Positions 32,110-58,467 of a stretch of DNA of 64,000 bases are shown in pieces. The notes under the pieces are model-generated. The model had not been told where the DNA came from, ran no database searches, and saw only the letters and a program-made list of their open reading frames with translations. The stretch spans positions 480,001 to 544,000 of the forward strand of contig BK006938.2 in NCBI GenBank assembly GCA_000146045.2, written 5' to 3'. Position 1 is the stretch's first letter. Every line of letters begins with the position of its first letter. A program made the position numbers and the translations under genes. This DNA comes from TPA_inf: Saccharomyces (taxonomy: Eukaryota).

Positions 32110-33043
32110 TATTGCCAGAAAACAGATCTTATACCAAAATGATGAGAGAAGGAAGAAACAGGGAGATAAGGACTAAAAAGGAAAATTTATCTAGCAACGT
32201 TCACAGCAATTCCTGTAGCTACGTGATGACCTCTGCTGGGCTTTTCTTATTCGCCTAGACTGAAGTGATGCAGAACAATAAGCATTCTAATCGGCCTATG
32301 GTTATGATTTTGAAATTCCTGAGGAAATTTTTCCACTGTCATTTCTTCCAATTGAGTCACGTCGCGTCCTCGTAGGCAATGATGTGCAACTTGAAGCGCG
32401 GAATTCACGGCTAAGAAGGTGTCGTTTTATTCATACCGTGCTGTAACGCTGTTTGGTCATCGTTTCCTTGTGTTATCAAATAAGTGAGGCCCTGTCTCTG
32501 TGATCTATACCAGCAGTCGCCTAATTTCGTAATACGTTATTGTAGACAACAATTTCTTGAAAAAGAGAGAATGTGTCTGGCTTGCAGGAAAAGAAGATGG
32601 TGACATATGCTTAGACGAGATTGTACATTCTGCATAATATAGCGAGTCAGAGCACATGTTTAGACAATATCTGATTTAAATTTCAAAATTAGGGATGTAT
32701 ATTCTAAATGTTTATGCGCTTAATACTATCGATGATTTCTGAATGGTTGCCTGTTTCAATGAATCCTTTAGAATAAAGAACATTTTTGAGCATTGTGTAA
32801 TTTATTTAGCAAGGAGTAAAAGCCAAGCGTATATTATGGTGATTTTTTTTATCATGCTTTTGAGTAACGGGTAATGACATACATTAGTGACATATGCTAG
32901 AAATTATCCTCAGATTTTAGAAGGCTACTTCAAAATGTTGATAATAACCATAAATAATATTATAATTTTTTTCTTCTTTTCCTTTTCAGGAGTAGGTAAA
33001 TATTGAGGTAATTCTTGAGTTTCAATGTTGGTAAAAGACTATA

Positions 33044-33258
33044 GCATTGGGTATACAGAGTTTACTAGAACACCTCCTCAGGGATATAGGAATCTGCACA
33101 AGGGAATTGACATTTCAAACATTTCAAGTAATATTGTTATTTTTCTTTTCATTTTATGTGTTGTCAGTCATTAACCTATCATATTATCAATCACTGCATT
33201 CAGATTCCATTAGATTTGATGGCAGTTTCTCAATCTTTATGTGCTCTTCTTACACCAT
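33044..33258 (-). repeat. Diverged, doubly truncated delta-like (Ty1/Ty2 LTR) fragment
   Basis: Alignable at roughly 75 percent with the internal portion of the adjacent LTRs (ggtatacagagtttactagaa...cttacacca); abuts the next solo delta directly. Confidence 0.6.
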
Positions 33259-33590
33259 TGAGAAATGGGTGAATGTTGAGATAATTGTTGGGATTCCATT
33301 TTTGATAAAGGCTATAATATTAGGTATATAGGGTATACTAGAAGTTCTCCTCGAGGGTCTAGGAATCCCCATAATGGAATCTATATTTCTATATACCAAT
33401 ATTAAGATTATTCCTCATTCCGTTTTATATGTTTCATTATCCTATTACATTATCAATCCTTGCACTTCAGCTTCCTCTAACTTCGATGACAGCTTCTCAT
33501 AACTTATGTCATCATCTTAACACCGTATATGATAATATATTGATAGTATAACTATTAGTTGATAGACGATAGTGGATTTTTATTCTAACA
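33259..33590 (-). repeat. Solo delta (Ty1/Ty2 LTR), 332 bp, canonical termini TGAGAAATGGGTGAAT...TTATTCTAACA
   Basis: Reverse complement reads TGTTAGAATAAAAATCCACTATCGTC...CCCATTTCTCA, matching the delta consensus end to end. Confidence 0.85.
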
Positions 33591-33688
33591 ACCATATATA
33601 ATAATATACCAGTAACACGAATAGTACTTAATAGACGATATTTATATAATAGTGTCCTTCTTCCTAAGATTATATGATGCACAAGAAA

Positions 33689-34020
33689 TGTTGAGAATGT
33701 GGATTTTGAGATAATTGTTGGGATTCCATTTTTAATAAGGCAATAATATTAGGTATGTAGATATACTAGAAGTTCTCCTCGAGGATTTAGGAATCCATAA
33801 AAGGGAATCTGCAATTCTACACAATTCTATAAATATTATTATCATCATTTTATATGTTAATATTCATTGATCCTATTACATTATCAATCCTTGCGTTTCA
33901 GCTTCCACTAATTTAGATGACTATTTCTCATCATTTGCGTCATCTTCTAACACCGTATATGATAATATACTAGTAACGTAAATACTAGTTAGTAGATGAT
34001 AGTTGATTTTTATTCCAACA
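33689..34020 (-). repeat. Ty1 3' LTR (delta)
   Basis: 332 bp; ends CCAACA on the plus strand; near-identical to the 5' LTR except for a cluster of differences in the outermost 17 bp. Confidence 0.85.
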
Positions 34021-34042
34021 TACCACCCATAATGTAATAGAT

Positions 34043-37000
34043 CTAATGAATCCATTTGTTAGTTAATAGTTTAAATGTTTTTATCGGAAGAGGTTTTGTC
34101 ATCACATCAGCAATGTTCTTCTTGGTCTCGATGTAGTATACGTATAAATTATTACCTGATACTTCATCTCTAAGTCTCATTGCCTTTGTGCCAAAAAATC
34201 TGTTTCTAAATTTCTCTTCATTTGTAGACTTAATTATACTGATCGTTGATCTACTATCAGTAAGTAAGCCTTTAATAATTGGTTTCTTGTTAAGTTCTTG
34301 CACAAGGTGACTGAGGTTATTCAATAGCGGTATAGCTTCACTGACTGCGTGTATTTCTGCTTCTGTAGTTGAAGTGCATGTTAACGAAGCCTTTGTCGAC
34401 TTTCCTCCAATCACTTTTCCGTTGAGTAGGAAAATGTTACCAATTTGTGACTTGTAATATGGTTGGTTACCATATGAAGCATCGCTTATTGCGACTAGTT
34501 TATTATCTGGCTTGGTAGGTTTGTTTTTGTGCCATATTAATTGTTTATCTCTAGTGTCCCACATGAATTGTATTAACTCATATGTCATGTCTAAAACTTG
34601 CCTAGAGGGGAATAGTATATGTTGAGCAAGTGTGTTGATGTAGTATAGTAAGTCAAATCTAAATTTATATCCAACATATGAAGCTAGACCAATCAACTTT
34701 TGCATTTCATGTACTTTCTCTTTATATTCATCTTCATCTATTTCTAGTTCATCCTGGTCTATATAATGACCTGGTTGACCTGGAGCTCTAAGTTTCTTTC
34801 CTTTTGGGTTCAAAGGTACGTTTAGTTTGGGTAATTTTTCTGTCAAGGATTTTTCCATACCTAATTTCATGTACTTGCTTCTTTGATATTTGATCTCTAA
34901 TCCAAGTATGTCGTACTGAATTTCGTTATCACCTTCACCCAGATTTATTATCTTTGTATCGTATTGTTTCTTGAGTGTTGTTATGATTTTCTTATTTGCA
35001 TTTAAGTCTTTGCTGAATAATATCATATCATCAACGAATAAGCAAATTGTTACTTGACTATTCTTAAATACGCATGACCATCCGCGAACTTCTTGCATGT
35101 CGCAACAATTTATTAAATATGATTTAATGGTTTCATACCAGTTTGCACCACTTTGTTTCAAACCATAGAGTGATTTTCTCAAACGTAGTAACTTATCATT
35201 CAAACCTAAATGTGGTGGAGGTCTTATGTATAATTCTTCTTTGATATCAGCATATAAGTAAGCAGAGGATATGTCCAGCTGTGTGATATAATAGTCATTG
35301 TCTAATGCGATTGACAATGACGTCATCAGTGCATAGTGATGTACGGTATTGGATTGCATATCAGAATCATATGTATCGGGGTGTTGAATGTCGCCTCTTG
35401 CAACAAATCTAGCTTTGTGTGTACCATCACGTTTTTTGTTAAATATAAACATTGAGTTTATTACTTTCTTAGGATCTATGTCATTTCTATCATAATATTT
35501 GTTTGTATCCCAAGTGTTCATTCTCAATAGTTGGTTAATTTCTTTATGATAAGCTTCAATATATCTGTCTTTTTCTTTGTTGTCTTCATTATATGTAATT
35601 GCTTCATCATATCTTAAGGTCGTTCGAACTGGTTTGATTGATTTTACTCCTTTTATTGCAGCAATTAGATTTATACGTTTCTTCGATCTTGGTGGTTCCA
35701 GACTTCTCATATTCTTATTATTCCATGTGTCTCGGGATACCTCAATTTCAGTTTCATTATCTTCTAATGATCTTTTCTTACTTTTGGTAGTAGTCAGAAC
35801 ATTAGAATCATCCATACCACCCAAACTGGAATTAGTCTGACGAGAGTGTATGTGTGGAATATCTTTTGAAACATCAGAAGTGTCCGTAGGAGATTTATTA
35901 GTTAAGTCAGGAAGTGGGAGGTCGTCAAGAATAGAATCAGCCGTAACATTTTTTGAGGATTTGTCAGGCATTATATTAGGAGTCGCATGGTCAGAAGATC
36001 GATATTCTGGCGGATCCGTATCAATGGAGGGTGTATTATCGCATGCAGCCTTTGTTTCTATGGAGATGATGGGAGTAGTGGATTCACTGTTGGACGAACG
36101 GTCATCTATTGAGGGCGTACTATTTGTAGTCCTGTATTTGATATTTGTATCACTATTTCGTTGAATATATGGTTCCTCCGTACCACCCAAACGTGTAGTT
36201 TTGATGTTTTCAAGTCCATAATTAACTCTATCCTGTGAGGTCAAATCAATCATATCATTGGGACTACCAGGTCGCTTTTGGTTTCGTGCAGTGAAGGTAG
36301 ACGAGTGTCTAGGTGAAGTAGTATCTGATTCAATGGTACCACCCATTTCGGTACTCTCTTTATTAATGATATGGGGTGTACGAGATCGTATAGTAGATGG
36401 AAGAATATTGTATTCAGATATGTCGGCATCAACTTCTTTTGGTGCACGTACTTTTTGGACTGGTTCCTTGTCTAATTGTAAAGGGTTTATTGATTGGGAC
36501 GAGAAGTCGTTCACTAGAGGATCAGAGTTTATTTCAATCTCCGATTGATAGTCATGATCAGATTCTGTATTTTGATCATATGACTGCTCTGTTTCATTTT
36601 TTTCAATAAAAGATTGGTTATGGGCTGTTAAACGATTGAGATCATCATCAAAGGTGAGTGTATCATAATTGAATTGGTCCAATTTGGATTGCTTGTCTTG
36701 TAATATAACGTAATTGGTAGTATCTACTGTCTTTTTTAATGATGGAAGATAGATAATATAGCCATAAGAGTTTCGTGACGGATGTAAGGCGTAACCTGGA
36801 ATGCCACGAGGATGTATTTTCGAGTCGGGATTATGGTTGTTAACTATAACCGGTTGACCGAAAGGTAGTATAGTAGTAATGTCCAGTCCAGCTAAACCTG
36901 CATGTTGTCTTGCAGATTTATCGTTTTTTGGTGAGACTAATGAATTTCTGATTATAGTAGAAAATTCGACTGCTGAGAACCATAGATGATTTGGTAGACC

Positions 37001-38066
37001 ACTGCAATGAAGCAGTGTGCGACAATCGTTTAATAAAGTACGATTTAATCGTTCAGCGACACCGTGTGCTCTAGAATCTGCCGTGGTTGTATAGCATGCA
37101 GTAATACCTCTGTTCGTAAAGAACTTATGAAGAGTTTTGTTAGTGTACTCGGAGCCACGATCCATCTGGATAACTAGAACGCGAGCATTGAATTGGTTCT
37201 TAATAAATGCTAATATCGATGTAAAAACATTGAGGATAGATTCTTCACGACGGTCGTGTAATGGGTACACCCATTGGAATCTGGTTTTCTCATCTGTAAA
37301 CGATATAAAGTAAGAAGGTGCACTTTTCGGTAAGTGATGTACAGGACCAAATATATCGGTATGCAAGTACTGAAAAGGCTCATATGATTCTTGGTACTTT
37401 AGTCGTGATCCTTTGACATGTCTATGTTTCGTGCTTTTGCCGATTAGACAGTCAGGACATTGATATGTGCTAGCGTTAGACCATTCAATATCCGATTCCT
37501 TCAAATATGTAACTGCATTCTTCTTAAGAGACTTCTGAATACTTCGGAAGTTAGCATGTCCAAGCATTCGATGTATTAACGGATATGGATATTTATTTAC
37601 GCTTTTGCTTTTGTTGACGTTGTTTATTGTTAGCTTTGAAATGTGCGAAGGAATTAGGTATTTTTTAGATAACCAGTAAAAGTCTCCATGTTTGACTATG
37701 GGAGCTAGTACTGTACCATCCGATCTTTCTAAAGTGTTTCTGGTAAAGCAGGCAGTAATATTTTGATTAGCCAGCTCACTCAAACTTAATAGATCATAGG
37801 CTATGTTTGGTGTGTGTAGTGCTTTTATTGATGTTTTGGTGCCGTTCTGAAAGTTGAAGTGAAGATTACCAATGGCATTTATAGGAATGTCTTGTTTTTG
37901 AGCATCGACTATGTTTATTTCAGAATTGGGTGTTGCATGGTGTAAATAATGGGCTGATCTGACAAGCGTTTGCGAAGCTCCTGAATCAATAAGAAGGTGA
38001 TCAGGTAGTTCGTCATTCGAGTCTATTGTGTGTGTTGGCTTAGATTCTTTCTGTTGCTGGCCTAAG
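34043..38066 (-). CDS. TYB: Ty1 Pol (TYB: protease, integrase, RT, RNase H), expressed as a Gag-Pol fusion by +1 ribosomal frameshifting
   Basis: Uninterrupted +1-frame ORF to 34043; integrase zinc motif [19 protein letters not shown] YxDD motif (LFVDDM), RNase H-like C-terminal end. Confidence 0.88.
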
Positions 38067-39356
38067 ACTAAGTTCGTTGTCATCGCTTAAGTATTGTGAT
38101 GAAACGGTTGATTCATTAATGTGATCATTGTTCACCCTTGAGAATTTACTAGATGTAGCAATATTGTGAGCTTTTGCTGCTCTTGGTTTTGAACTATTTG
38201 TTCTCTGATAATTACGAGTTGTAACCTTTGTGTTAGTCGTGTTTGGAGATGTGCGAGAAACATTTTTGTATTCGCTGTGTTGTTTGTATTGGGACGGTTT
38301 ATTTAGATTCATGATTTTATTTTCGTCATATATTAATTGAATTTCAGCGAATAATTGGGAAAGTTTCATGTTCGTTTTGGTACGATATTGATTACGTAGG
38401 TATTTGAAGTCACCGGATAGACCTTTAAGTATTAGTTGACAGGCCAATCTGTCGCTAACATTGATATTGTTTTCTTTTAGCCTCTGAATGATCGTACTGA
38501 CTGTAATTTCAAATGTATCAGCAGATGTACTTCCGTCGTACTCAAGGTTGGCAAGAGCTATCCAATCCTTTAATTCTTGATTGTTAGTTTGCATTTTGGA
38601 CACACTTTTACAAAGGACTGTAAGGATGTCAGCATAATTAATTTCTAAAATTTGTTTTACCCATGTTGGCAATAAATGAAATGGGGCAAATGCTTGGAAG
38701 GTATTGTATATATACGCATGTTCTTCATAAGTCATTTGTCTTTTGATTTCACCCTGGTCATTTGGAATGATGTCACCGAGATTAGAGTTCTTCAAAAATC
38801 TGATGTAAAATTTAACCCATGTAGAAAAGTTTTCTTCTGATGTTAAAGTGTGTGGTGGTAAGACGTTATTTCCCACCTTTGTCTTAGCTTGAGGTATTTC
38901 AGAGTGTTGATTTTTTAAATCGATTGGATCAGGTGAGGAAGTACTCAGTGGTGGGATATACTGTGGCAACGGATAGTGTGGGTCCGGTTGATAATACGCA
39001 GGTGACGTTTGATAATGTGAACACGTCATCATAGATGGTTGTTGGTAATGTGCCCAGTTAGAGGCCATAGCTTTGTTTGGGGTCATCATGCCGTGCTGTT
39101 GGTACTGTCCATTCTGTGGAGGTGGTACTGAAGCAGGTTGAGGAGAGACATGATGATGGTTCTCTGGAACAGCTGATGTCCCAGGTGTTGTCTCTTGTTG
39201 AGAATTAACCTTAGTGGAATCTCTATCAAATTCCGGTAAATTGGAAGCTGAAACGGCTAACGGATCTTGATTTGATGGGACTTCCTTAGAAGTAACCGAA
39301 GCATAGGCGCTACCATGAAGATTGGGTGAATTTTGAGATAATTGTTGGGATTCCAT
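38040..39356 (-). CDS. TYA: Ty1 Gag (TYA), 438 aa
   Basis: [49 protein letters not shown]... is typical Ty1 (not Ty2) Gag. Confidence 0.9.
38060..38066 (-). other. Ty1 +1 frameshift heptamer CUU-AGG-C
   Basis: Plus-strand GCCTAAG, reverse complement CTTAGGC, at the TYA/TYB overlap. Confidence 0.85.
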
Positions 39357-39647
39357 TTTTAATAAGGCAATAATATTAGGTATGTAGATATACTAGAAGT
39401 TCTCCTCCAGGATTTAGGAATCCATAAAAGGGAATCTGCAATTCTACACAATTCTATAAATATTATTATCATCATTTTATATGTTAATATTCATTGATCC
39501 TATTACATTATCAATCCTTGCGTTTCAGCTTCCACTAATTTAGATGACTATTTCTCATCATTTGCGTCATCTTCTAACACCGTATATGATAATATACTAG
39601 TAACGTAAATACTAGTTAGTAGATGATAGTTGATTTTTATTCCAACA
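39316..39647 (-). repeat. Ty1 5' LTR (delta); the TYA start codon lies inside it
   Basis: 332 bp; the TYA ATG (plus CAT 39354-39356) sits within the U5 part. Confidence 0.85.
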
Positions 39648-39742
39648 AGAAAAATACAATCTTCGAAAGTCATCCTCCCTTGAATATTCTTTCTTACCTA
39701 AACGAATAAGAACAGAATCTGAAAACAGGCAAGTGATTTTAC

Positions 39743-39826
39743 GGAGGGTTGGCCGAGTGGTCTAAGGCGGCAGACTTAAGATCTGTTGGACGGTTGTCCG
39801 CGCGAGTTCGAACCTCGCATCCTTCA
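39743..39826 (+). tRNA. tL(UAA)D: tRNA-Leu, anticodon UAA (tL(UAA)D), intron-less, long variable arm
   Basis: GGAGGGTTGGCCGAGTGGTCTAAGGCGGCAGACTTAAGATCTGTTGGACGGTTGTCCGCGCGAGTTCGAACCTCGCATCCTTCA; anticodon loop CTTAAGA; T7 terminator at 39835-39841. Confidence 0.9.
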
Positions 39827-40173: not shown

Positions 40174-40476
40174 GGAAATTCTGTGAATTTTGTGATAATT
40201 GTTGGAATTCCATTGTTAATAAAGGCTATAATATTAGGTATACAGGGTTTACTAGAAGTTCTCATCGAGGATTTAGGAATCCTCAAAATGGAATCTATAT
40301 TTCTACATGCTAATGTTACGATTATTCCTCATTTCGTTTTATATGTTTCATTATCCTATTACATTATCAATCCTTGCATTTCAGCTTCCTCTAACTTCGA
40401 AGCTTTCCATAACTTCTGTCATCATCTAATACCGTATATGATAATATATTGATAGTATGACCACTAGTTGATACAC
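40174..40476 (-). repeat. Solo delta LTR (about 300 bp, slightly truncated or diverged at the ends)
   Basis: tggaaattctgtgaattttgtgataattgttggaattccattgttaataaaggctataatattagg... is colinear with the other deltas in minus orientation. Confidence 0.75.
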
Positions 40477-40783
40477 TGTTGGAATAAAAACCAACTATCA
40501 TCTACTAACTAGTATTTATGTTACTAGTATATTATCATATACGGTGTTAGAAGATGACACAAATGATGAGAAATAGTCATCTAAATTAGTGGAAACTGAA
40601 ACGCAAGGATTGATAATGTAATAGGATAATGAAACATATAAAACTGAATGAGGAATGATCGTAATATTAGCATGTAGAAATATAGATTCCATTATGGGGA
40701 TTCCTATATCCTGGAGGAGAACTTCTAGTATATCTACATACCTAATATTATTGCCTTATTAAAAATGGAATCCCAACAATTAC
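40477..40783 (+). repeat. Solo delta LTR in the opposite (plus) orientation, truncated about 25 bp before its U5 end
   Basis: Begins TGTTGGAATAAAAACCAACTATCATCTACTAACTAG... immediately after the previous delta; ends ...AAAAATGGAATCCCAACAATTACA. Confidence 0.8.
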
Positions 40784-40834
40784 ATCAGAATCCGCACAAT
40801 TATCATAGATGATAATGGATTTTTATTCCAACAA
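40784..40834 (-). repeat. Terminal ~50-bp fragment of a third delta (its U3 end)
   Basis: tcagaatccgcacaattatcatagatgataatggatttttattccaaca matches the last ~50 bp of the minus-oriented deltas. Confidence 0.6.
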
Positions 40835-40971
40835 TCAGCATGCCTTTTGTATTTCTGTAAAGAAGAGTAAACCATAACCTAAGTCAATATCAAATTTAGG
40901 ATTGATGAATTTTCTACTCAAAATGCTTTGTTCAAGAAGGTACGAAAGAAGGTTCCAATCGTCCATTTTAG

Positions 40972-41043
40972 GGTCCTATAGTGTAGTGGTTATCACTTTC
41001 GGTTTTGATCCGGACAACCCCGGTTCGAATCCGGGTAGGACCT
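40972..41043 (+). tRNA. tQ(UUG)D: tRNA-Gln, anticodon UUG (tQ(UUG)D)
   Basis: GGTCCTATAGTGTAGTGGTTATCACTTTCGGTTTTGATCCGGACAACCCCGGTTCGAATCCGGGTAGGACCT; anticodon loop TTTTGAT; T-runs directly downstream. Confidence 0.9.
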
Positions 41044-41313
41044 TTTCTATTTTTTAACCCTCTTGTTTTATTTTTCTTTCTTGGCTTTGAATTGCACAGC
41101 CCCTCGCATTTTTTTTCGATACCCTGAAAAAAGGAAAAAGGCGAAGAAATAAGGGCAATTTCTATTTAAAAATTATACAAGCTCGATTTTTCATTTTCTC
41201 CTTCCCCTCTCGCCCCTCCCAGTTTTCAACTGTATTTAAATGTTTCTCAGTTATGTTGTGAATTAAAATAATCCTAATTGTCAACTAAAAAAGTCTAAGT
41301 TAGCAATACCAAA

Positions 41314-47421: not shown

Positions 47422-50400
47422 TTAATGCTTGACACTGATATTAATTTCGCTTTGAAGGGTTGTGGATGTGCTATACGCTTCAAATGGATCGTGTTTACTG
47501 CTTCGCTCCAAATCGTTTTCCGAATTGTGAGCTCTCTGAGTTTTGAAATAGCGCCTCTTTCCACACTTGTAAAGTTCAGCACCTATCCAGAATGCAATTG
47601 TGAATGCAATGGCGAGACCCCATTCAGCACCAATTGGTTTATGCAAAAACACTTTATCATTAATAACCGGAATATAGACGACGGGGAAGGCTGACACAAA
47701 TCCAAAAATGATTGACCAGAACAAAAACTGGTTTCCCCAAATACTTCTGAAAAATTCCTTGACTGGGCTGTCAGTGTCTGGATGCATTCTGAAAAAAGAT
47801 CTTCTCATGTCAACCACTTCCCAAGCCAGAATCAAAGCGCACCACGTCATAGTTGCGAAAGCCGCAGAACGTGATCTATAAACATCACGACAACTGCTGT
47901 TATAGGTGCCATCACAATCGTGCCCCAATCTACCACTATTTATTCCATACAGTGATCCAGTAAATGAAGCCATACAGGACCCTGTCATTATAATCCCATA
48001 TGCAAATGTATCTATAATAACCTCCCATGTGAAAATACCAACCTCTGAATCATTAGGAGGTCTATCCATCAAATCTGGAGCAGCCTTTTCTAGACCTAGC
48101 CCCATAGCAGGAAAACAAGAGGTGACGACAATAATCCACAATACTTCCACTGGTGATAAGGGAAATACTGATTTTCCGTTCTCATCTCTGAATACTAAAC
48201 CAATGATCAAATACAAAGCCTGAGCAACATTTTCTGCCAATAATTGTAGGACAAACTTCTGAATGTTATCCGTCATCCTACGACCTTCTTCGACAGCATT
48301 CAAAATAGAAGCAAAATTGTCATCGCTTAGAACAATATCAGACGCTTCTTTGGAAACATCTGAACCATTAATACCCATTGCAATACCAACATTGGCCATT
48401 TTTAGAGATGGAGAATCGTTAACACCGTCACCTGTCATTGCGCAGAACTTCTTCCTACGGTGTAAAGCTTCGATCATTCTCACCTTAGTCTGCGGAGAGC
48501 AACGTGCAATAACTAAAGGTAAGACGGGCAAATCGTCCACTTCCTCCTCACTTAGTCCGTCAAACTGAGATCCGGTCATGACCATACTGTCAACAATCTC
48601 TTGGGAGTAATGGTACAAATTGGTGGGTAAGATGCCAACCTCCTGAGCGATAGCCTTTGCTGTACCCACAAAGTCCCCAGTTAACATATGAACGTTAATA
48701 CCAGCTTGGTGAAACTTCTTGACTGCACCGGCAGTCTCATTTCTGGGTGGATCGTAAATACCAATCAACCCTAGGAAAACTAAATCACTTTCTGCGGTGG
48801 CCCTGTTTGAAGTAATGTTTTTCAATTGATCGTCATTCACTTGATCTTTAGTGAAAGATTTGGAGGCAAAACCCAAGACTCTTAAACCCTCATTTGATAG
48901 ACTGTAAACATTTTTCCTTATCGTTTCGACATCACAATCGGTCAATGGTGTGATTTTTACACCATCCTTACCATACCAAGAACTGCAACAACTGATGATG
49001 CTTTCGAAAGCACCCTTGCCATAAATATTATATGTTTCGTTGTGATTGTTGTAGTAGACAGATGACATTCGCTTCACAGTTGAGTCGAATGGGAATTCAG
49101 CAATATGTTCGAATTGTGCACTGCCAGGCTTCTCATTGTGTTGTGAAAGAGAGGATTGGTCATTCTCATTACTTTGATTAGTCGATTTCTCACCGGTAAG
49201 GGCATTGTGAGGCAAGTCCATCTTAGTAGCAAACACTTGAATCGCAATTTCTGTTGGGTCACCATGAGCTTTCCAACAGTCAGTTGCGTCATCTTTGAAA
49301 ACAGTAGCAATGTTAGCCAAAGTGGCGGTTTCGAGCCATTTTTGAAATAGATCCATGTCAATATCTTCTGGTAAATCTTTTTCGTATAGGCGATCCTTGA
49401 AATTCTGGAGAATACCAACGTCACCATCCTCATTATGAGAATATTCGTAAGGTGAAAACCTTGGAATCAAACTCACGTTGCCCTCATTGGGATTAAAGGG
49501 GTCATCAGAATTCGAGATAGTTATGGTACCAAAGCGAGGGATCCAAATTTGCCTCGCTAACATTTTACCCTGTGTAAGAGTACCGGTCTTGTCAGAACAG
49601 ATATCGTTAACGGCACCTAAAGCTTCCAGAGAATCTAATTTTCTTACAATAACGTTTCTAGAAACCATAACAGCAGCCCCAACAGACATGGTGATGGTCA
49701 AGACAACGACTAATGAAGAGGGAATCATGGATAGGGCCACACAAATGGCATAGATAGCTACCCTTTTATCTACGTCAAACTTTTGAGAGGCCATGACGAT
49801 GATAGCAAAAAGTACGGCAATCCAGAAAAGCAATACCGCCAACTTAGACAGTTTCCTGTGCAGGGGCGTACCGACATTTGTACCTAAAAATGCACCAGTA
49901 ACTTTCTTTGTAGATATCCATGTATTCTGTAACCACGACTTACTAGGATCGCGGGAAATGAGACCTGAATCACCTTGTAGAGATTTTGCAATTTTACCAA
50001 TTTCACTATTCAAAGCTGTCTTGATGACAATACCCTTGGCTCTTCCCTTGACAACGGCGGATGAAGAAAATGCTAAATTCAAACGATCACCCACGGAGGT
50101 TTCTTCTTCTTTTCCAAACACTAAGTTGGCGTCTTTGGAGACAGGCAAAGATTCACCGGTCAGTAGTGATTCATCAGTATCAAAATTCTTAGTTTCAATT
50201 AAACGCAAATCAGCAGGAATAGTATCACCGACCTTCACCAGACAAATATCACCTGGAACCACATCTTTTGAGTTTATAGTCTCACTTTTCCCGTTCCTAA
50301 TAACATGAGCATTGGGAGAGCTCAAGTTTTTCAAAGAGTTCATTGTCTTGGTAGCCTTATATTCTTGAACTAGGCCAATGAGCACATTGACCGCGATAAC

Positions 50401-50697
50401 AAAAGAAATAACGCCACCAGTAATCCAGTCGCGCACAGCGAAAGAGATCGCCATGGATATTACCAAGACCATAATCATTGCATTACATACCTGATGGAGG
50501 ACCATTGCTTTATAGTCAATTTTGGTATCATCACCCAATGTGTTCTCTCCCACTGCTTTCAGTCTGCGGAGGGACTCATCTTGAGTAAGACCTTCAGTCA
50601 GACTTGTGCCTATAAATTCAGCGGCTTCTTCTGTAGTCAATGTGTGATAAGCATTGAATTCTTCATTATTGTTTTCTTTGACAGTTCCCTCGCTCAT
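47422..50697 (-). CDS. ENA5: P-type (type IID) Na+/Li+ efflux ATPase, 1091 aa; first unit of the tandem array, with a diverged C-terminus
   Basis: ATG confirmed (CAT 50695-50697); DKTGTLT phosphorylation motif, TGDFVGTA, GDGVNDSP; C-terminal ...AHNSENDLERSSKHDPFEAYSTSTTLQSEINISVKH differs from the other two copies. Confidence 0.9.
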   Translation of the reverse strand: MSEGTVKENNNEEFNAYHTLTTEEAAEFIGTSLTEGLTQDESLRRLKAVGENTLGDDTKIDYKAMVLHQVCNAMIMVLVISMAISFAVRDWITGGVISFVIAVNVLIGLVQEYKATKTMNSLKNLSSPNAHVIRNGKSETINSKDVVPGDICLVKVGDTIPADLRLIETKNFDTDESLLTGESLPVSKDANLVFGKEEETSVGDRLNLAFSSSAVVKGRAKGIVIKTALNSEIGKIAKSLQGDSGLISRDPSKSWLQNTWISTKKVTGAFLGTNVGTPLHRKLSKLAVLLFWIAVLFAIIVMASQKFDVDKRVAIYAICVALSMIPSSLVVVLTITMSVGAAVMVSRNVIVRKLDSLEALGAVNDICSDKTGTLTQGKMLARQIWIPRFGTITISNSDDPFNPNEGNVSLIPRFSPYEYSHNEDGDVGILQNFKDRLYEKDLPEDIDMDLFQKWLETATLANIATVFKDDATDCWKAHGDPTEIAIQVFATKMDLPHNALTGEKSTNQSNENDQSSLSQHNEKPGSAQFEHIAEFPFDSTVKRMSSVYYNNHNETYNIYGKGAFESIISCCSSWYGKDGVKITPLTDCDVETIRKNVYSLSNEGLRVLGFASKSFTKDQVNDDQLKNITSNRATAESDLVFLGLIGIYDPPRNETAGAVKKFHQAGINVHMLTGDFVGTAKAIAQEVGILPTNLYHYSQEIVDSMVMTGSQFDGLSEEEVDDLPVLPLVIARCSPQTKVRMIEALHRRKKFCAMTGDGVNDSPSLKMANVGIAMGINGSDVSKEASDIVLSDDNFASILNAVEEGRRMTDNIQKFVLQLLAENVAQALYLIIGLVFRDENGKSVFPLSPVEVLWIIVVTSCFPAMGLGLEKAAPDLMDRPPNDSEVGIFTWEVIIDTFAYGIIMTGSCMASFTGSLYGINSGRLGHDCDGTYNSSCRDVYRSRSAAFATMTWCALILAWEVVDMRRSFFRMHPDTDSPVKEFFRSIWGNQFLFWSIIFGFVSAFPVVYIPVINDKVFLHKPIGAEWGLAIAFTIAFWIGAELYKCGKRRYFKTQRAHNSENDLERSSKHDPFEAYSTSTTLQSEINISVKH

Positions 50698-53600
50698 CGA
50701 AAATTTTCAATTATGTGTACAAAGATTTTTCCTCAGTGAGTACATACGTTATCTGATAAGCAAAATACGAATATGAATAACGTTGATTTGGTTAACGTAT
50801 TCTCGATGTAAAGGATGAAGGAAAATAAAATTCTTTCCTCTTTCTTTGCCTCGAGAGATAATATGGAGATTTAAAGAAGAAAACATCAGCCTCACAATTA
50901 CACCGCGCGGTGATATAAGGATTTTGATAAAAGAATATATGTGAGTTGAATTTGAACGTCCTGGAAGGAAAAGTCTTGACGAAATAAACGCATTAATTTT
51001 CTAATTCTACAAGAATTTAACTAATCCTGTATTGAAATTCATAATTTTAGTTAAGAACCCTGTCATACGCGTAACGTAACTGTATCTGTTTCATGATTTA
51101 CAACGGCAGCAATAAGAGTATAGCAGTAGTATTCCTCTAAGACATATTTGAACTAGAAAACATACTATTTAGGCTTGTTTATGTTCAGAACCTGTGAAAA
51201 GTTCGTTTATAGTAAATAAAAAAACAAATAACAAAATAAATGTAAATATCTAAATATATGAAATGAATAAGGAAAAAGATAGGGAGCACTTAATAGGCCC
51301 TGCCTATCATTGTTTAATACCAATATTAACTTCTGTATGGATTGTAGTAGAAGTACTATACGCTTCGAATGGATCGCGCTTATTGTTACTCTCCAAATCA
51401 TTCTCCGGGTTGTGCGCTCTCTGAGTTTTGAAATAGCGCCTCTTTCCACACTTGTAAAGTTCAGCACCTATCCAGAATGCAATTGTGAATGCAATGGCGA
51501 GACCCCATTCAGCACCAATTGGTTTATGCAAAAACACTTTATCATTAATAACCGGAATATAGACGACGGGGAAGGCTGACACAAATCCAAAAATGATTGA
51601 CCAGAACAAAAACTGGTTTCCCCAAATACTTCTGAAAAATTCCTTGACTGGGCTGTCAGTGTCTGGATGCATTCTGAAAAAGGATCTTCTCATGTCAACC
51701 ACTTCCCAAGCCAGAATCAAAGCGCACCACGTCATGGTTGCGAAAGCCGCAGAACGTGATCTATAAACATCACGACAACTGCTGTTATAGGTGCCATCAC
51801 AATCGTGCCCCAATCTACCACTATTTATTCCATACAGTGATCCAGTAAATGAAGCCATACAGGACCCTGTCATTATAATCCCATATGCAAATGTATCTAT
51901 AATAACCTCCCACGTGAAAATACCAACCTCTGAATCATGAGGAGGTCTATCCATCAAATCTGGAGCAGCCTTTTCTAGACCTAGCCCCATAGCAGGAAAA
52001 CAAGAGGTGACGACAATAATCCACAATACTTCCACTGGTGATAAGGGAAATACTGATTTTCCGTTCTCATCTCTGAATACTAAACCAATGATCAAATACA
52101 AAGCCTGAGCAACATTTTCTGCCAATAATTGTAGGACAAACTTCTGAATGTTATCCGTCATCCTACGACCTTCTTCGACAGCATTCAAAATAGAAGCAAA
52201 ATTGTCATCGCTTAGAACAATATCAGACGCTTCTTTGGAAACATCTGAACCATTAATACCCATTGCAATACCAACATTGGCCATTTTTAGAGATGGAGAA
52301 TCGTTAACACCGTCACCTGTCATTGCGCAGAACTTCTTCCTACGGTGTAAAGCTTCGATCATTCTCACCTTAGTCTGCGGAGAGCAACGTGCAATAACTA
52401 AAGGTAAGACGGGCAAATCGTCCACTTCCTCCTCACTTAGTCCGTCAAACTGAGATCCGGTCATGACCATACTGTCAACAATCTCTTGGGAGTAATGGTA
52501 CAAATTGGTGGGTAAGATGCCAACCTCCTGAGCGATAGCCTTTGCTGTACCCACAAAGTCCCCAGTTAACATATGAACGTTAATACCAGCTTGGTGAAAC
52601 TTCTTGACTGCACCGGCAGTCTCATTTCTGGGTGGATCGTAAATACCAATCAACCCTAGGAAAACTAAATCACTTTCTGCGGTGGCCCTGTTTGAAGTAA
52701 TGTTTTTCAATTGATCGTCATTCACTTGATCTTTAGTGAAAGATTTGGAGGCAAAACCCAAGACTCTTAAACCCTCATTTGATAGACTGTAAACATTTTT
52801 CCTTATCGTTTCGACATCACAATCGGTCAATGGTGTGATTTTTACACCATCCTTACCATACCAAGAACTGCAACAACTGATGATGCTTTCGAAAGCACCC
52901 TTGCCATAAATATTATATGTTTCGTTGTGATTGTTGTAGTAGACAGATGACATTCGCTTCACAGTTGAGTCGAATGGGAATTCAGCAATATGTTCGAATT
53001 GTGCACTGCCAGGCTTCTCATTGTGTTGTGAAAGAGAGGATTGGTCATTCTCATTACTTTGATTAGTCGATTTCTCACCGGTAAGGGCATTGTGAGGCAA
53101 GTCCATCTTAGTAGCAAACACTTGAATCGCAATTTCTGTTGGGTCACCATGAGCTTTCCAACAGTCAGTTGCGTCATCTTTGAAAACAGTAGCAATGTTA
53201 GCCAAAGTGGCGGTTTCGAGCCATTTTTGAAATAGATCCATGTCAATATCTTCTGGTAAATCTTTTTCGTATAGGCGATCCTTGAAATTCTGGAGAATAC
53301 CAACGTCACCATCCTCATTATGAGAATATTCGTAAGGTGAAAACCTTGGAATCAAACTCACGTTGCCCTCATTGGGATTAAAGGGGTCATCAGAATTCGA
53401 GATAGTTATGGTACCAAAGCGAGGGATCCAAATTTGCCTCGCTAACATTTTACCCTGTGTAAGAGTACCGGTCTTGTCAGAACAGATATCGTTAACGGCA
53501 CCTAAAGCTTCCAGAGAATCTAATTTTCTTACAATAACGTTTCTAGAAACCATAACAGCAGCCCCAACAGACATGGTGATGGTCAAGACAACGACTAATG

Positions 53601-56600
53601 AAGAGGGAATCATGGATAGGGCCACACAAATGGCATAGATAGCTACCCTTTTATCTACGTCAAACTTTTGAGAGGCCATGACGATGATAGCAAAAAGTAC
53701 GGCAATCCAGAAAAGCAATACCGCCAACTTAGACAGTTTCCTGTGCAGGGGCGTACCGACATTTGTACCTAAAAATGCACCAGTAACTTTCTTTGTAGAT
53801 ATCCATGTATTCTGTAACCACGACTTACTAGGATCGCGGGAAATGAGACCTGAATCACCTTGTAGAGATTTTGCAATTTTACCAATTTCACTATTCAAAG
53901 CTGTCTTGATGACAATACCCTTGGCTCTTCCCTTGACAACGGCGGATGAAGAAAATGCTAAATTCAAACGATCACCCACGGAGGTTTCTTCTTCTTTTCC
54001 AAACACTAAGTTGGCGTCTTTGGAGACAGGCAAAGATTCACCGGTCAGTAGTGATTCATCAGTATCAAAATTCTTAGTTTCAATTAAACGCAAATCAGCA
54101 GGAATAGTATCACCGACCTTCACCAGACAAATATCACCTGGAACCACATCTTTTGAGTTTATAGTCTCACTTTTCCCGTTCCTAATAACATGAGCATTGG
54201 GAGAGCTCAAGTTTTTCAAAGAGTTCATTGTCTTGGTAGCCTTATATTCTTGAACTAGGCCAATGAGCACATTGACCGCGATAACAAAAGAAATAACGCC
54301 ACCAGTAATCCAGTCGCGCACAGCGAAAGAGATCGCCATGGATATTACCAAGACCATAATCATTGCATTACATACCTGATGGAGGACCATTGCTTTATAG
54401 TCAATTTTGGTATCATCACCCAATGTGTTCTCTCCCACTGCTTTCAGTCTGCGGAGGGACTCATCTTGAGTAAGACCTTCAGTCAGACTTGTGCCTATAA
54501 ATTCAGCGGCTTCTTCTGTAGTCAATGTGTGATAAGCATTGAATTCTTCATTATTGTTTTCTTTGACAGTTCCCTCGCTCATCGAAAATTTTCAATTATG
54601 TGTACAAAGATTTTTCCTCAGTGAGTACATACGTTATCTGATAAGCAAAATACGAATATGAATAACGTTGATTTGGTTAACGTATTCTCGATGTAAAGGA
54701 TGAAGGAAAATAAAATTCTTTCCTCTTTCTTTGCCTCGAGAGATAATATGGAGATTTAAAGAAGAAAACATCAGCCTCACAATTACACCGCGCGGTGATA
54801 TAAGGATTTTGATAAAAGAATATATGTGAGTTGAATTTGAACGTCCTGGAAGGAAAAGTCTTGACGAAATAAACGCATTAATTTTCTAATTCTACAAGAA
54901 TTTAACTAATCCTGTATTGAAATTCATAATTTTAGTTAAGAACCCTGTCATACGCGTAACGTAACTGTATCTGTTTCATGATTTACAACGGCAGCAATAA
55001 GAGTATAGCAGTAGTATTCCTCTAAGACATATTTGAACTAGAAAACATACTATTTAGGCTTGTTTATGTTCAGAACCTGTGAAAAGTTCGTTTATAGTAA
55101 ATAAAAAAACAAATAACAAAATAAATGTAAATATCTAAATATATGAAATGAATAAGGAAAAAGATAGGGAGCACTTAATAGGCCCTGCCTATCATTGTTT
55201 AATACCAATATTAACTTCTGTATGGATTGTAGTAGAAGTACTATACGCTTCGAATGGATCGCGCTTATTGTTACTCTCCAAATCATTCTCCGGGTTGTGC
55301 GCTCTCTGAGTTTTGAAATAGCGCCTCTTTCCACACTTGTAAAGTTCAGCACCTATCCAGAATGCAATTGTGAATGCAATGGCGAGACCCCATTCAGCAC
55401 CAATTGGTTTATGCAAAAACACTTTATCATTAATAACCGGAATATAGACGACGGGGAAGGCTGACACAAATCCAAAAATGATTGACCAGAACAAAAACTG
55501 GTTTCCCCAAATGCTTCTGAAAAATTCCTTGACTGGGCTGTCAGTGTCTGGATGCATTCTGAAAAAGGATCTTCTCATGTCAACCACTTCCCAAGCCAGA
55601 ATCAAAGCGCACCACGTCATGGTTGCGAAAGCCGCAGAACGTGATCTATAAACATCACGACAACTGCTGTTATAGGTGCCATCACAATCGTGCCCCAATC
55701 TACCACTATTTATTCCATACAGTGATCCAGTAAATGAAGCCATACAGGACCCTGTCATTATAATCCCATATGCAAATGTATCTATAATAACCTCCCACGT
55801 GAAAATACCAACCTCTGAATCATGAGGAGGTCTATCCATCAAATCTGGAGCAGCCTTTTCTAGACCTAGCCCCATAGCAGGAAAACAAGAGGTGACGACA
55901 ATAATCCACAATACTTCCACTGGTGATAAGGGAAATACTGATTTTCCGTTCTCATCTCTGAATACTAAACCAATGATCAAATACAAAGCCTGAGCAACAT
56001 TTTCTGCCAATAATTGTAGGACAAACTTCTGAATGTTATCCGTCATCCTACGACCTTCTTCGACAGCATTCAAAATAGAAGCAAAATTGTCATCGCTTAG
56101 AACAATATCAGACGCTTCTTTGGAAACATCTGAACCATTAATACCCATTGCAATACCAACATTGGCCATTTTTAGAGATGGAGAATCGTTAACACCGTCA
56201 CCTGTCATTGTGCAGAACTTCTTCCTACGGTGTAAAGCTTCGATCATTCTCACCTTAGTCTGCGGAGAGCAACGTGCAATAACTAAAGGTAAGACGGGCA
56301 AATCGTCCACTTCCTCCTCACTTAGTCCGTCAAACTGAGATCCGGTCATGACCATACTGTCAACAATCTCTTGGGAGTAATGGTACAAATTGGTGGGTAA
56401 GATGCCAACCTCCTGAGCGATAGCCTTTGCTGTACCCACAAAGTCCCCAGTTAACATATGAACGTTAATACCAGCTTGGTGAAACTTCTTGACTGCACCG
56501 GCAGTCTCATTTCTGGGTGGATCGTAAATACCAATCAACCCTAGGAAAACTAAATCACTTTCTGCGGTGGCCCTGTTTGAAGTAATGTTTTTCAATTGAT

Positions 56601-58197
56601 CGTCATTCACTTGATCTTTAGTGAAAGATTTGGAGGCAAAACCCAAGACTCTTAAACCCTCATTTGATAGACTGTAAACATTTTTCCTTATCGTTTCGAC
56701 ATCACAATCGGTCAATGGTGTGATTTTTACACCATCCTTACCATACCAAGAACTGCAACAACTGATGATGCTTTCGAAAGCACCCTTGCCATAAATATTA
56801 TATGTTTCGTTGTGATTGTTGTAGTAGACAGATGACATTCGCTTCACAGTTGAGTCGAATGGGAATTCAGCAATATGTTCGAATTGTGCACTGCCAGGCT
56901 TCTCATTGTGTTGTGAAAGAGAGGATTGGTCATTCTCATTACTTTGATTAGTCGATTTCTCACCGGTAAGGGCATTGTGAGGCAAGTCCATCTTAGTAGC
57001 AAACACTTGAATCGCAATTTCTGTTGGGTCACCATGAGCTTTCCAACAGTCAGTTGCGTCATCTTTGAAAACAGTAGCAATGTTAGCCAAAGTGGCGGTT
57101 TCGAGCCATTTTTGAAATAGATCCATGTCAATATCTTCTGGTAAATCTTTTTCGTATAGGCGATCCTTGAAATTCTGGAGAATACCAACGTCACCATCCT
57201 CATTATGAGAATATTCGTAAGGTGAAAACCTTGGAATCAAACTCACGTTGCCCTCATTGGGATTAAAGGGGTCATCAGAATTCGAGATAGTTATGGTACC
57301 AAAGCGAGGGATCCAAATTTGCCTCGCTAACATTTTACCCTGTGTAAGAGTACCGGTCTTGTCAGAACAGATATCGTTAACGGCACCTAAAGCTTCCAGA
57401 GAATCTAATTTTCTTACAATAACGTTTCTAGAAACCATAACAGCAGCCCCAACAGACATGGTGATGGTCAAGACAACGACTAATGAAGAGGGAATCATGG
57501 ATAGGGCCACACAAATGGCATAGATAGCTACCCTTTTATCTACGTCAAACTTTTGAGAGGCCATGACGATGATAGCAAAAAGTACGGCAATCCAGAAAAG
57601 CAATACCGCCAACTTAGACAGTTTCCTGTGCAGGGGCGTACCGACATTTGTACCTAAAAATGCACCAGTAACTTTCTTTGTAGATATCCATGTATTCTGT
57701 AACCACGACTTACTAGGATCGCGGGAAATGAGACCTGAATCACCTTGTAGAGATTTTGCAATTTTACCAATTTCACTATTCAAAGCTGTCTTGATGACAA
57801 TACCCTTGGCTCTTCCCTTGACAACGGCGGATGAAGAAAATGCTAAATTCAAACGATCACCCACGGAGGTTTCTTCTTCTTTTCCAAACACTAAGTTGGC
57901 GTCTTTGGAGACAGGCAAAGATTCACCGGTCAGTAGTGATTCATCAGTATCAAAATTCTTAGTTTCAATTAAACGCAAATCAGCAGGAATAGTATCACCG
58001 ACCTTCACCAGACAAATATCACCTGGAACCACATCTTTTGAGTTTATAGTCTCACTTTTCCCGTTCCTAATAACATGAGCATTGGGAGAGCTCAAGTTTT
58101 TCAAAGAGTTCATTGTCTTGGTAGCCTTATATTCTTGAACTAGGCCAATGAGCACATTGACCGCGATAACAAAAGAAATAACGCCACCAGTAATCCA
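47530..58197. repeat. Homogenised block of the ENA tandem array: two complete 3,885-bp direct-repeat units (47530..51414, 51415..55299) plus a partial third (55300..58197)
   Basis: Period 3,885 bp from the ORF spacing (47422, 51307, 55192); the 609-bp spacers 50698..51306 and 54583..55191 are identical; identity decays at both edges. Confidence 0.9.
51307..54582 (-). CDS. ENA2: P-type Na+/Li+ efflux ATPase, 1091 aa; middle unit
   Basis: Identical to the ENA5 copy over about 1,055 codons; shares its C-terminus and downstream flank with ENA1. Confidence 0.9.
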   Translation of the reverse strand: MSEGTVKENNNEEFNAYHTLTTEEAAEFIGTSLTEGLTQDESLRRLKAVGENTLGDDTKIDYKAMVLHQVCNAMIMVLVISMAISFAVRDWITGGVISFVIAVNVLIGLVQEYKATKTMNSLKNLSSPNAHVIRNGKSETINSKDVVPGDICLVKVGDTIPADLRLIETKNFDTDESLLTGESLPVSKDANLVFGKEEETSVGDRLNLAFSSSAVVKGRAKGIVIKTALNSEIGKIAKSLQGDSGLISRDPSKSWLQNTWISTKKVTGAFLGTNVGTPLHRKLSKLAVLLFWIAVLFAIIVMASQKFDVDKRVAIYAICVALSMIPSSLVVVLTITMSVGAAVMVSRNVIVRKLDSLEALGAVNDICSDKTGTLTQGKMLARQIWIPRFGTITISNSDDPFNPNEGNVSLIPRFSPYEYSHNEDGDVGILQNFKDRLYEKDLPEDIDMDLFQKWLETATLANIATVFKDDATDCWKAHGDPTEIAIQVFATKMDLPHNALTGEKSTNQSNENDQSSLSQHNEKPGSAQFEHIAEFPFDSTVKRMSSVYYNNHNETYNIYGKGAFESIISCCSSWYGKDGVKITPLTDCDVETIRKNVYSLSNEGLRVLGFASKSFTKDQVNDDQLKNITSNRATAESDLVFLGLIGIYDPPRNETAGAVKKFHQAGINVHMLTGDFVGTAKAIAQEVGILPTNLYHYSQEIVDSMVMTGSQFDGLSEEEVDDLPVLPLVIARCSPQTKVRMIEALHRRKKFCAMTGDGVNDSPSLKMANVGIAMGINGSDVSKEASDIVLSDDNFASILNAVEEGRRMTDNIQKFVLQLLAENVAQALYLIIGLVFRDENGKSVFPLSPVEVLWIIVVTSCFPAMGLGLEKAAPDLMDRPPHDSEVGIFTWEVIIDTFAYGIIMTGSCMASFTGSLYGINSGRLGHDCDGTYNSSCRDVYRSRSAAFATMTWCALILAWEVVDMRRSFFRMHPDTDSPVKEFFRSIWGNQFLFWSIIFGFVSAFPVVYIPVINDKVFLHKPIGAEWGLAIAFTIAFWIGAELYKCGKRRYFKTQRAHNPENDLESNNKRDPFEAYSTSTTIHTEVNIGIKQ

Positions 58198-58467
58198 ATC
58201 ATGCATGGCAAACGAGATTATCATGGATATTAGAAGGACCATGATCATGGCATTACATACCTGATGGAGGACCATTGCCTTGTAATCAATTTTAGTGTCA
58301 TCACCCAATGTGTTCTCACCCACTGTTTTCAATCTGTGGACGAACTCATCTTGGGTCAAACCTTCAGTTAGACTTGTGCCTATGAATTCAGCGGCTTCTT
58401 CTGCAGTCAGCGTGTGATAAGCATTGAATTCTGCATTATTGTTTTCCTTAGTAGTTCCTTCGCCCAT
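55192..58467 (-). CDS. ENA1: P-type Na+/Li+ efflux ATPase, 1091 aa; promoter-proximal unit with a diverged first ~90 codons (MGEGTTKENNNAEFNAYHTLTAEE...) and a unique promoter
   Basis: Coding identity with ENA2 starts at about 58197 and runs leftwards; one internal difference at 56211 (Thr vs Ala). Confidence 0.9.
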   Translation of the reverse strand: MGEGTTKENNNAEFNAYHTLTAEEAAEFIGTSLTEGLTQDEFVHRLKTVGENTLGDDTKIDYKAMVLHQVCNAMIMVLLISMIISFAMHDWITGGVISFVIAVNVLIGLVQEYKATKTMNSLKNLSSPNAHVIRNGKSETINSKDVVPGDICLVKVGDTIPADLRLIETKNFDTDESLLTGESLPVSKDANLVFGKEEETSVGDRLNLAFSSSAVVKGRAKGIVIKTALNSEIGKIAKSLQGDSGLISRDPSKSWLQNTWISTKKVTGAFLGTNVGTPLHRKLSKLAVLLFWIAVLFAIIVMASQKFDVDKRVAIYAICVALSMIPSSLVVVLTITMSVGAAVMVSRNVIVRKLDSLEALGAVNDICSDKTGTLTQGKMLARQIWIPRFGTITISNSDDPFNPNEGNVSLIPRFSPYEYSHNEDGDVGILQNFKDRLYEKDLPEDIDMDLFQKWLETATLANIATVFKDDATDCWKAHGDPTEIAIQVFATKMDLPHNALTGEKSTNQSNENDQSSLSQHNEKPGSAQFEHIAEFPFDSTVKRMSSVYYNNHNETYNIYGKGAFESIISCCSSWYGKDGVKITPLTDCDVETIRKNVYSLSNEGLRVLGFASKSFTKDQVNDDQLKNITSNRATAESDLVFLGLIGIYDPPRNETAGAVKKFHQAGINVHMLTGDFVGTAKAIAQEVGILPTNLYHYSQEIVDSMVMTGSQFDGLSEEEVDDLPVLPLVIARCSPQTKVRMIEALHRRKKFCTMTGDGVNDSPSLKMANVGIAMGINGSDVSKEASDIVLSDDNFASILNAVEEGRRMTDNIQKFVLQLLAENVAQALYLIIGLVFRDENGKSVFPLSPVEVLWIIVVTSCFPAMGLGLEKAAPDLMDRPPHDSEVGIFTWEVIIDTFAYGIIMTGSCMASFTGSLYGINSGRLGHDCDGTYNSSCRDVYRSRSAAFATMTWCALILAWEVVDMRRSFFRMHPDTDSPVKEFFRSIWGNQFLFWSIIFGFVSAFPVVYIPVINDKVFLHKPIGAEWGLAIAFTIAFWIGAELYKCGKRRYFKTQRAHNPENDLESNNKRDPFEAYSTSTTIHTEVNIGIKQ

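Follow-up and report, generated by a model that had tools for sequence, protein, structure and literature searches.

YDRCTy2-1, the full-length retrotransposon upstream of tRNA-Leu(UAA) on yeast chromosome IV, is a Ty2 and not a Ty1 element

Chromosome IV (chrIV) of the Saccharomyces cerevisiae S288C reference carries, in the 64,000-bp stretch analysed here (contig BK006938.2, chrIV 480,001-544,000, hereafter the window), a long terminal repeat (LTR) retrotransposon inserted close to a tRNA-Leu(UAA) gene, and the locus raises the question of the family to which this element belongs and of how its two unequal LTRs came about. An earlier note, made from the DNA sequence alone, had described the element as an intact Ty1. 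We conclude that it is almost certainly YDRCTy2-1, which is among the 13 full-length Ty2 elements in the S288C reference. The assignment to the LTR retrotransposons of the Ty1/Ty2 group, full-length and intact, was upheld, but the family was called wrongly, as indicated by exact matches to the proteins of Ty2-DR1, by a Gag sharing only about 50% identity with its Ty1 counterpart, and by the C-terminal region of the integrase (IN). YDRCTy2-1 is already known, being annotated and present in UniProt, with published population frequencies, and there is nothing biologically new about it; the locus serves rather as a calibration case, in which the anatomy was read exactly and the family wrongly, only gag and the C-terminal region of IN being able to discriminate between Ty1 and Ty2.

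The identification is carried by exact-sequence look-ups, in which the 438-amino acid Gag was found to be identical to Q12392/NP_058139.1 and the 1,770-amino acid Gag-Pol to Q12472/NP_058138.3, both described as 'Transposon Ty2-DR1' of S288C. The element occupies window positions 33689-39647 on the minus strand, i.e. 5,959 bp between its two junctions, which at an offset of 480,000 corresponds to chrIV 513,689-519,647. Carr 2012 (File S2, PMC3511429) lists YDRCTy2-1 as chrIV_u6-_TY2, at chrIV 513691-519645 on the minus strand, Full and Active, labels its LTRs as TY2, and reports it as a polymorphic insertion carried by 4 of the 23 scorable strains. With the offset taken into account, these coordinates and those found in the window differ by no more than 2 bp at either end. 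The proteins, coordinates, strand, neighbouring tRNA and solo LTRs are all the same as those of YDRCTy2-1 (SGD S000006862); we found no difference and no evidence against the identity. In the literature this element serves as the representative Ty2 of SGD, and it has been studied as a recombination substrate in experiments and as the left end-point of amplifications that arise by recombination at chrIV ~515 kb.

According to Kim 1998, as cited in Carr 2012 (PMC3511429), it is the divergence of gag together with a hypervariable part of pol that separates Ty1 from Ty2, and the LTRs of the two families show a single fixed difference, a 1-bp deletion (Carr 2012, PMC3511429). The identity between the Gag of the window element and six full-length Ty2 Gag sequences amounts to 96-99%; this Gag is also about 91% positionally identical to three mis-spliced annotations of 1,749 amino acids and 86% identical to a Ty2-like capsid of S. 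mikatae, but only 50-51% identical to Ty1 Gag, and in an alignment of 103 residues with the Ty1 p22 protein (PDB 7NLH) it shows substitutions throughout. For Pol, the identity to seven other Ty2 sequences is 98.8-99.3%. When compared with the Ty1 IN (PDB 7Z0H chain W), the N-terminal catalytic ~430 residues align well, residues 585-641 of the Pol open reading frame (ORF) cannot be aligned, and the alignment returns at the C-terminal end; in the C-terminal region of IN only the last ~70 residues, with the nuclear localization signal (NLS) and the targeting stretch, are conserved with respect to Ty1. Judged from these alignments, both gag and the hypervariable region of pol, represented by the C-terminal part of IN, are of the Ty2 type. 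The products also have the sizes known from Ty2 (Gag of 438 and Gag-Pol of 1,770 amino acids), whereas the Ty1 Gag comprises 440 amino acids.

As a Ty1 reference at the nucleotide level we used a canonical-type element which, in another strain (L007, assembly GCA_949124545.1), lies only 20 bp from the Ty2 site. The identity to this Ty1 is low in gag (54-65% over most of it) and at element positions 3001-3750 (31-62%), but reaches 82-100% in the region of reverse transcriptase (RT) and RNase H; most of the unique 3' region (U3) of the LTR is 100% identical. High identity in RT/RNase H combined with low identity in gag and in the C-terminal region of IN is the pattern by which the literature splits Ty2 from Ty1. 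When aligned with the LTR of the L007 Ty1 and with a Ty1-type solo LTR, both LTRs lack 1 bp after LTR position 259 and another after position 282, two gaps that are candidates for the published diagnostic deletion; the L007 LTR has a Ty2-like U3 and is therefore uninformative on any deletion in U3. The two elements also differ in size, with LTRs of 332 bp in YDRCTy2-1 versus 334 bp in the L007 Ty1, and total lengths of 5,959 versus 5,923 bp.

The anatomy of the element is that of the Ty1/copia type (Pseudoviridae), with protease (PR), IN, RT and RNase H encoded in this order between two LTRs. The LTRs, delimited by alignment to each other, lie on the minus strand at 39316..39647 (5' LTR) and 33689..34020 (3' LTR); each begins with TG and ends with CA, and the gag ATG is located at position 292 of the 5' LTR. 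Their outer ends are abutted by the two copies of the target-site duplication AGAAA (33684..33688 and 39648..39652, plus strand), which is present in a single copy at empty sites. The primer-binding site (PBS) TGGTAGCGCC follows directly after the 5' LTR (39306..39315, minus strand) and is identical to the PBS of the L007 Ty1. That this 10-mer is complementary to the 3' end of the initiator tRNA-Met (tRNAiMet) is a matter of established knowledge and of its identity to the Ty1 PBS. The polypurine tract (PPT) PPT1, TGGGTGGTA, abuts the 3' LTR (34021..34029, minus strand), just as an identical tract does in the Ty1 reference, and an internal copy of TGGGTGGTA (35815..35823, minus strand) occupies the position homologous to the central PPT2 of Ty1. 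The gag (TYA) ORF, 438 codons plus the stop (38040..39356, minus strand), matches the Pfam domain TYA PF01021 with E = 2.6e-205. The +1 frameshift heptamer CTT-AGG-C, the sole CTTAGGC in the element, is found in the gag frame at 38060..38066 (minus strand), and the pol (TYB) frame extends from the frameshift to its stop (34043..38062, minus strand). The cis elements characteristic of the Ty1/Ty2 superfamily, namely PBS, PPT, CUU-AGG-C and the 5-bp duplication, are all present, the pairing of the PBS with tRNAiMet being taken from the literature, and the PBS, the PPT and the frameshift site match those of the L007 Ty1 both in sequence and in place. In all these points the earlier note was accurate: the limits of the element, the 332-bp size of both LTRs, the perfect AGAAA duplication, the PBS and the PPT, the CUU-AGG-C site and the full-length Gag and Pol ORFs were all borne out.

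A +1 shift at CTTAGGC yields a stop-free Gag-Pol fusion of 1,770 amino acids, in which the pol frame past the heptamer reads ...L-G-Q-Q-Q-K-E-S..., as in the UniProt sequences of Ty2 Gag-Pol. The Pfam domains of Pol follow in the order Pol_BBD (a protease-like barrel), gag_pre-integrs, rve, SH3_retrovirus and RVT_2, and all catalytic motifs are intact (DSGAS; H-X4-H and C-X2-C; D/D/E; FVDD; and D/E/D/D of RNase H), at Gag-Pol positions 457 (PR), 595-769 (IN), 1359-1443 (RT) and 1623-1751 (RNase H). By analogy with the published life cycle of Ty1 and Ty2, the element would be transcribed by RNA polymerase II from the 5' LTR, and the RNA translated into the 438-amino acid Gag and, following the +1 frameshift at CUU-AGG-C, into the 1,770-amino acid Gag-Pol, the source of protease, integrase, reverse transcriptase and RNase H. 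Reverse transcription would then be primed by tRNAiMet at the PBS, with the plus strand beginning at the PPT, and IN would insert the complementary DNA (cDNA) with a 5-bp duplication of the target. In Ty1, the primer tRNAiMet anneals not only to the PBS, but also to BOX0 and BOX1, and the frameshift at the heptamer depends on a scarce tRNA and not on RNA structure (PMC7969010).

The target of the insertion is the upstream region of a gene transcribed by RNA polymerase III (Pol III). The tRNA-Leu(UAA) gene, identified by ARAGORN at 39743..39826 on the plus strand, is oriented divergently to the element and begins 95 bp from the edge of the 5' LTR, which fits the Pol III-upstream window of Ty1-type insertions, as had been noted before. 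The C-terminal part of IN encodes a bipartite NLS and a stretch predicted to target the Pol III subunit AC40 (35675..35779, minus strand); its translation aligns to residues 596-630 of the Ty1 IN (PDB 7Z0H chain W), of which K617, S621 and L622 are conserved in the window element. These three residues are required for the binding of Ty1 IN to AC40, and the Ty2 IN has been reported to bind AC40 as well and to share the preference of Ty1 for Pol III-upstream regions (PMC7459421). The upstream insertion and the conserved AC40-binding residues are thus what would be expected of Pol III-targeted integration of the Ty1/Ty2/Ty4 type, and the position 95 bp upstream of tRNA-Leu(UAA) may be explained, on the basis of the literature, by tethering of the IN C-terminus to AC40.

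This Pol III-upstream region has been hit repeatedly, as there are solo LTRs on both sides of the element and an independent Ty1 in L007. Solo or fragmentary Ty1/Ty2 LTRs are found at 32986-33643, 40182-40448, 40477-40810 and 40806-40833, and the cluster lies partly between tRNA-Leu and the gene for tRNA-Gln(UUG) (40971-41044); a nested arrangement, with YDRCdelta3 inside YDRCdelta2, has been described there, and YDRCdelta6a is also listed nearby (Carr 2012, PMC3511429). The solo LTR at 40477-40810 (plus strand) looks like a mosaic, with a Ty1-like middle part of U3, both of the Ty2 1-bp gaps in R-U5, and G at position 240 as in the 5' LTR of the Ty2. The Ty1 in L007 (L007:2519-8441), 20 bp from the empty Ty2 site and in the opposite orientation, is 5,923 bp long and has identical 334-bp LTRs, the target-site duplication CTTAG (equivalent to window positions 33664-33668) and a 440-amino acid Gag. 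Its U3 is identical to that of Ty2, which makes the LTR one of a Ty1/Ty2-hybrid type; the pol frame of this Ty1 is broken, with the fused frame stopping at 772 amino acids.

How the site looks in other strains was examined in ten other assemblies, which were reached via the neighbouring gene for a 790-amino acid zinc-cluster protein; exact-product look-ups with the window Gag and with the Ty2-C Gag-Pol gave none. In six natural S. cerevisiae assemblies (L002, L003, L005, L007, L008 and L009) the site is uninterrupted, with a single AGAAA (...GCACAAGAAAAATACAATCT...), which is the empty-site sequence that the earlier note had predicted along with a polymorphism among strains. One assembly (L001) carries the same full Ty2 with one synonymous difference, and in another (L006:8090-8421, GCA_000977145.2) the identical site, again with the AGAAA duplication, is occupied by a solo LTR of 332 bp; this LTR is 100% identical to the 3' LTR in the window and differs from the 5' LTR at all eight positions at which the two LTRs disagree. 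Three alleles of the site thus occur within the species, namely empty, solo LTR and full Ty2, and their existence indicates that the AGAAA duplication is real and that the insertion is young and still segregating.

Two of the assemblies were excluded from this comparison. L004 is a metagenome assembly that joins an LTR to unrelated genes, and it was treated as a chimera or a rearrangement. L010 (GCA_031758555.1, CP134412.1), in which the Ty, the tRNA genes and the LTRs are missing, was considered as a natural allele and rejected, as its genes are recoded and it contains a putative loxPsym; it was judged to be an engineered synthetic chromosome. There, the sequence ATAACTTCGTATAATGTACATTATACGAAGTTAT stands in place of the entire interval with the Ty2, all solo LTRs and both tRNA genes, and the coding flanks are only 97.5-98.7% identical. 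The element ATAACTTCGTATAATGTACATTATACGAAGTTAT itself (L010:8902-8935) is presumably a loxPsym site. L010 thus looks like a synthetic chromosome IV deposited among natural assemblies, and one might take it for a naturally occurring deletion.

The earlier note did not mention that the LTRs of the window element are unequal: they differ at 8 of 332 positions (2.4%), namely at LTR position 240 and at seven positions within the last 14 bp of U5 (39408 and 39318-39329 in the 5' LTR versus 33781 and 33691-33702 in the 3' LTR). At position 240 the 5' LTR reads CTGGAG and the 3' LTR has the XhoI-type CTCGAG; in Ty1, this position is presumably the last one ahead of R. A cap-copying error of the reverse transcriptase was considered as the source of the G at position 240 and rejected, as it should mark both LTRs. 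The last 14 bp of U5 encode also Gag residues 7-14, a stretch that varies among Ty1 and Ty2 copies in general, and the U5 variant of the 5' LTR (Gag ...SQNSPNLH...) is found on other Ty2 gag genes (P0011 and P0013). A single clustered event fits the eight differences better than independent mutations, which suggests that they resulted from recombination and not from slow decay. Either one LTR end was exchanged after the insertion, or the element was a mosaic from the start. As the differences form one cluster, located at or after the U3/R border, the 2.4% divergence is no measure of age, and more generally, LTR-LTR divergence can badly overestimate the age of an element when the differences stem from one clustered recombination event. 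There are three candidate mechanisms: ectopic gene conversion over a short stretch of one LTR, recombination between Ty2 cDNA and a solo LTR already at the site, and a heteroduplex inherited from the reverse transcription of two different co-packaged RNAs. In a three-way comparison of YDRCTy2-1, the Ty2 contig L011 and the L007 Ty1 we found 51 scattered differences, but no clean Ty1-like tract and no donor of the U5 end. The U5 ends vary among the short metagenome Ty2 contigs (L011-L013), which are possibly assembly mosaics and were left out of the inference of donors.

It could be that a Ty2 solo LTR occupied the site before the full element, and that recombination with Ty2 cDNA, an LTR circle or an ectopic copy then produced a full element with the old duplication and mosaic LTRs. 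The L006 allele, with the same site and duplication and with all eight positions as in the 3' LTR, is in line with such a history; all differences are found from position 240 onwards, as expected of a single crossover upstream of 240, and the Gag N-terminus SQNSPNLH encoded by the U5 end of the 5' LTR is common to P0011 and P0013, the same copies with which the body of gag is grouped. However, the data are fitted also by an insertion, followed by a short ectopic conversion and, in another lineage, by LTR-LTR recombination with a crossover in the first 239 bp. Conversion is common, with at least 19 recombination events inferred among the 13 Ty2 copies (Carr 2012, PMC3511429), and no donor was identified for the recombination with a pre-existing solo LTR. 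We regard the solo LTR as an unlikely starting point, and give a similarly small chance to the broader proposition that the full Ty2 was built by recombination of cDNA or an LTR circle into a solo LTR, or from a heteroduplex of two co-packaged RNAs, instead of by plain insertion and gene conversion.

It is plausible, to the extent that sequence features can tell, that YDRCTy2-1 itself is still retrotransposition-competent: the prerequisites, i.e. open frames, catalytic motifs and membership in the active clade of Carr 2012, are all there. Two points may speak against competence. Six substitutions in Pol (A1104, N1153, E1257, I1266, N1274 and R1278) are absent from the seven other Ty2 sequences, and the U5 end of the 5' LTR is unlike that of its own 3' LTR. 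A structurally intact, but recently dead copy that is no longer mobile could be suspected on these grounds, the more so as four of the six private substitutions are clustered at Gag-Pol positions 1257-1278, near the start of RT, and the divergent U5 terminus of the 5' LTR would become both cDNA ends in the progeny. Yet neither the six substitutions nor the U5 variant touch known catalytic motifs; the 1,770 codons are free of stops and frameshifts, and the same element in a second assembly has just a single synonymous difference. The U5-end variant must have been propagated, because it occurs also on other Ty2 gag genes, and the insertion is polymorphic, of low frequency and placed in the active clade (Carr 2012). 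A dead copy is therefore decidedly improbable. The chance that the element is after all a canonical Ty1, represented in our comparisons by the Gag of Ty1-OR (P0020), 7Z0H, 7NLH and L007, is negligible. Such an element would have the same architecture, PBS, PPT, frameshift heptamer, 5-bp duplication and tRNA-upstream site, the same Pol III-upstream targeting and AC40-binding residues, a near-identical U3, and an RT/RNase H region as similar as the 82-100% observed; the features used in the earlier note could not separate the families, because the LTRs are near-identical and the PBS, the PPT, the heptamer and the target preference are shared. It is refuted, however, by the exact protein matches to Ty2-DR1 in UniProt and the TY2 annotation, and by the Gag, which is half-identical to that of Ty1, strongly substituted with respect to p22 and 438 instead of 440 residues long, in a Gag-Pol of the length given in Ty2 entries, as well as by the partly unalignable C-terminal region of IN; neither the 440-amino acid Gag, including p22, nor the Ty1-type C-terminal region of IN is present.

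Among the other Ty2 copies, Ty2-C (P25384) and Ty2-OR2 (Q12293) have proteins of the same lengths as YDRCTy2-1, 438 and 1,770 amino acids, and the contig L011 differs from it at about 51 nucleotides over 5.4 kb. YDRCTy2-1 is distinguished from other copies by the six private substitutions in Pol, by the different U5 ends of its two LTRs, and by the variant SQNSPNLH at the N-terminus of Gag, together with the variant 5' U5 end, as opposed to HQNPHSLH, which is common in other Ty2 copies. The Ty2-like sequences of a different species, S. mikatae, (P0017 and L014) show 86% identity in Gag and 92-95% in matched nucleotide segments; the copy in L014 (L014:6550-9009, OX365771.1) is internally deleted and lacks element positions ~2048-5156. 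It has been proposed that Ty2 entered S. cerevisiae from S. mikatae (Carr 2012, PMC3511429), and the observed likeness is consistent with such an origin. A full-length Ty1-like element with the same PBS and PPT as in Ty2 was also found in Lachancea fermentati (L016:6209-12116, LT598491.1); for the most part it shows 72-80% nucleotide identity to YDRCTy2-1, a high value in view of the distance between the hosts.

The core of the PPT, GGGTGGTA, occurs four times in the element (36337-36345, 36181-36189, 35815-35823 and 34021-34029, minus strand), compared with 0.0145 occurrences expected from shuffling, and all four copies carry the full 9-mer TGGGTGGTA. The L007 Ty1 has them in identical alignment columns, and four copies of GGGTGGTA with the same or near-identical spacing are present also in the Ty1-like elements of S. 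mikatae (L015) and Lachancea fermentati (L016). The first two copies are always exactly 156 nucleotides apart, within the otherwise hypervariable C-terminal region of IN, and the Gly-Gly codons at the copies are always GGT-GGT, preceded by G. PPT2 has been located within pol (Heyman 1995, as cited in later papers), and the plus-strand origins that we found named in the literature are PPT1 and PPT2 only; a literature search for the string GGGTGGTA returned only primers and unrelated matches.

Fragments of Ty2 were encountered also in bacterial entries: three 'hypothetical proteins' of Streptococcus uberis (GAA5349144.1, WP_461254127.1 and GAA5351190.1), one of them with a RefSeq WP_ accession, are pieces of Ty2 Gag and RT/RNase H, which are likely to stem from contamination of bacterial assemblies with yeast DNA. 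Elsewhere in the window, three tandem genes for cation P-type ATPases of 1,091 amino acids each, with a period of 3,885 bp, are located at 47422-58467 on the minus strand, and we take them to be the ENA5/ENA2/ENA1 array.

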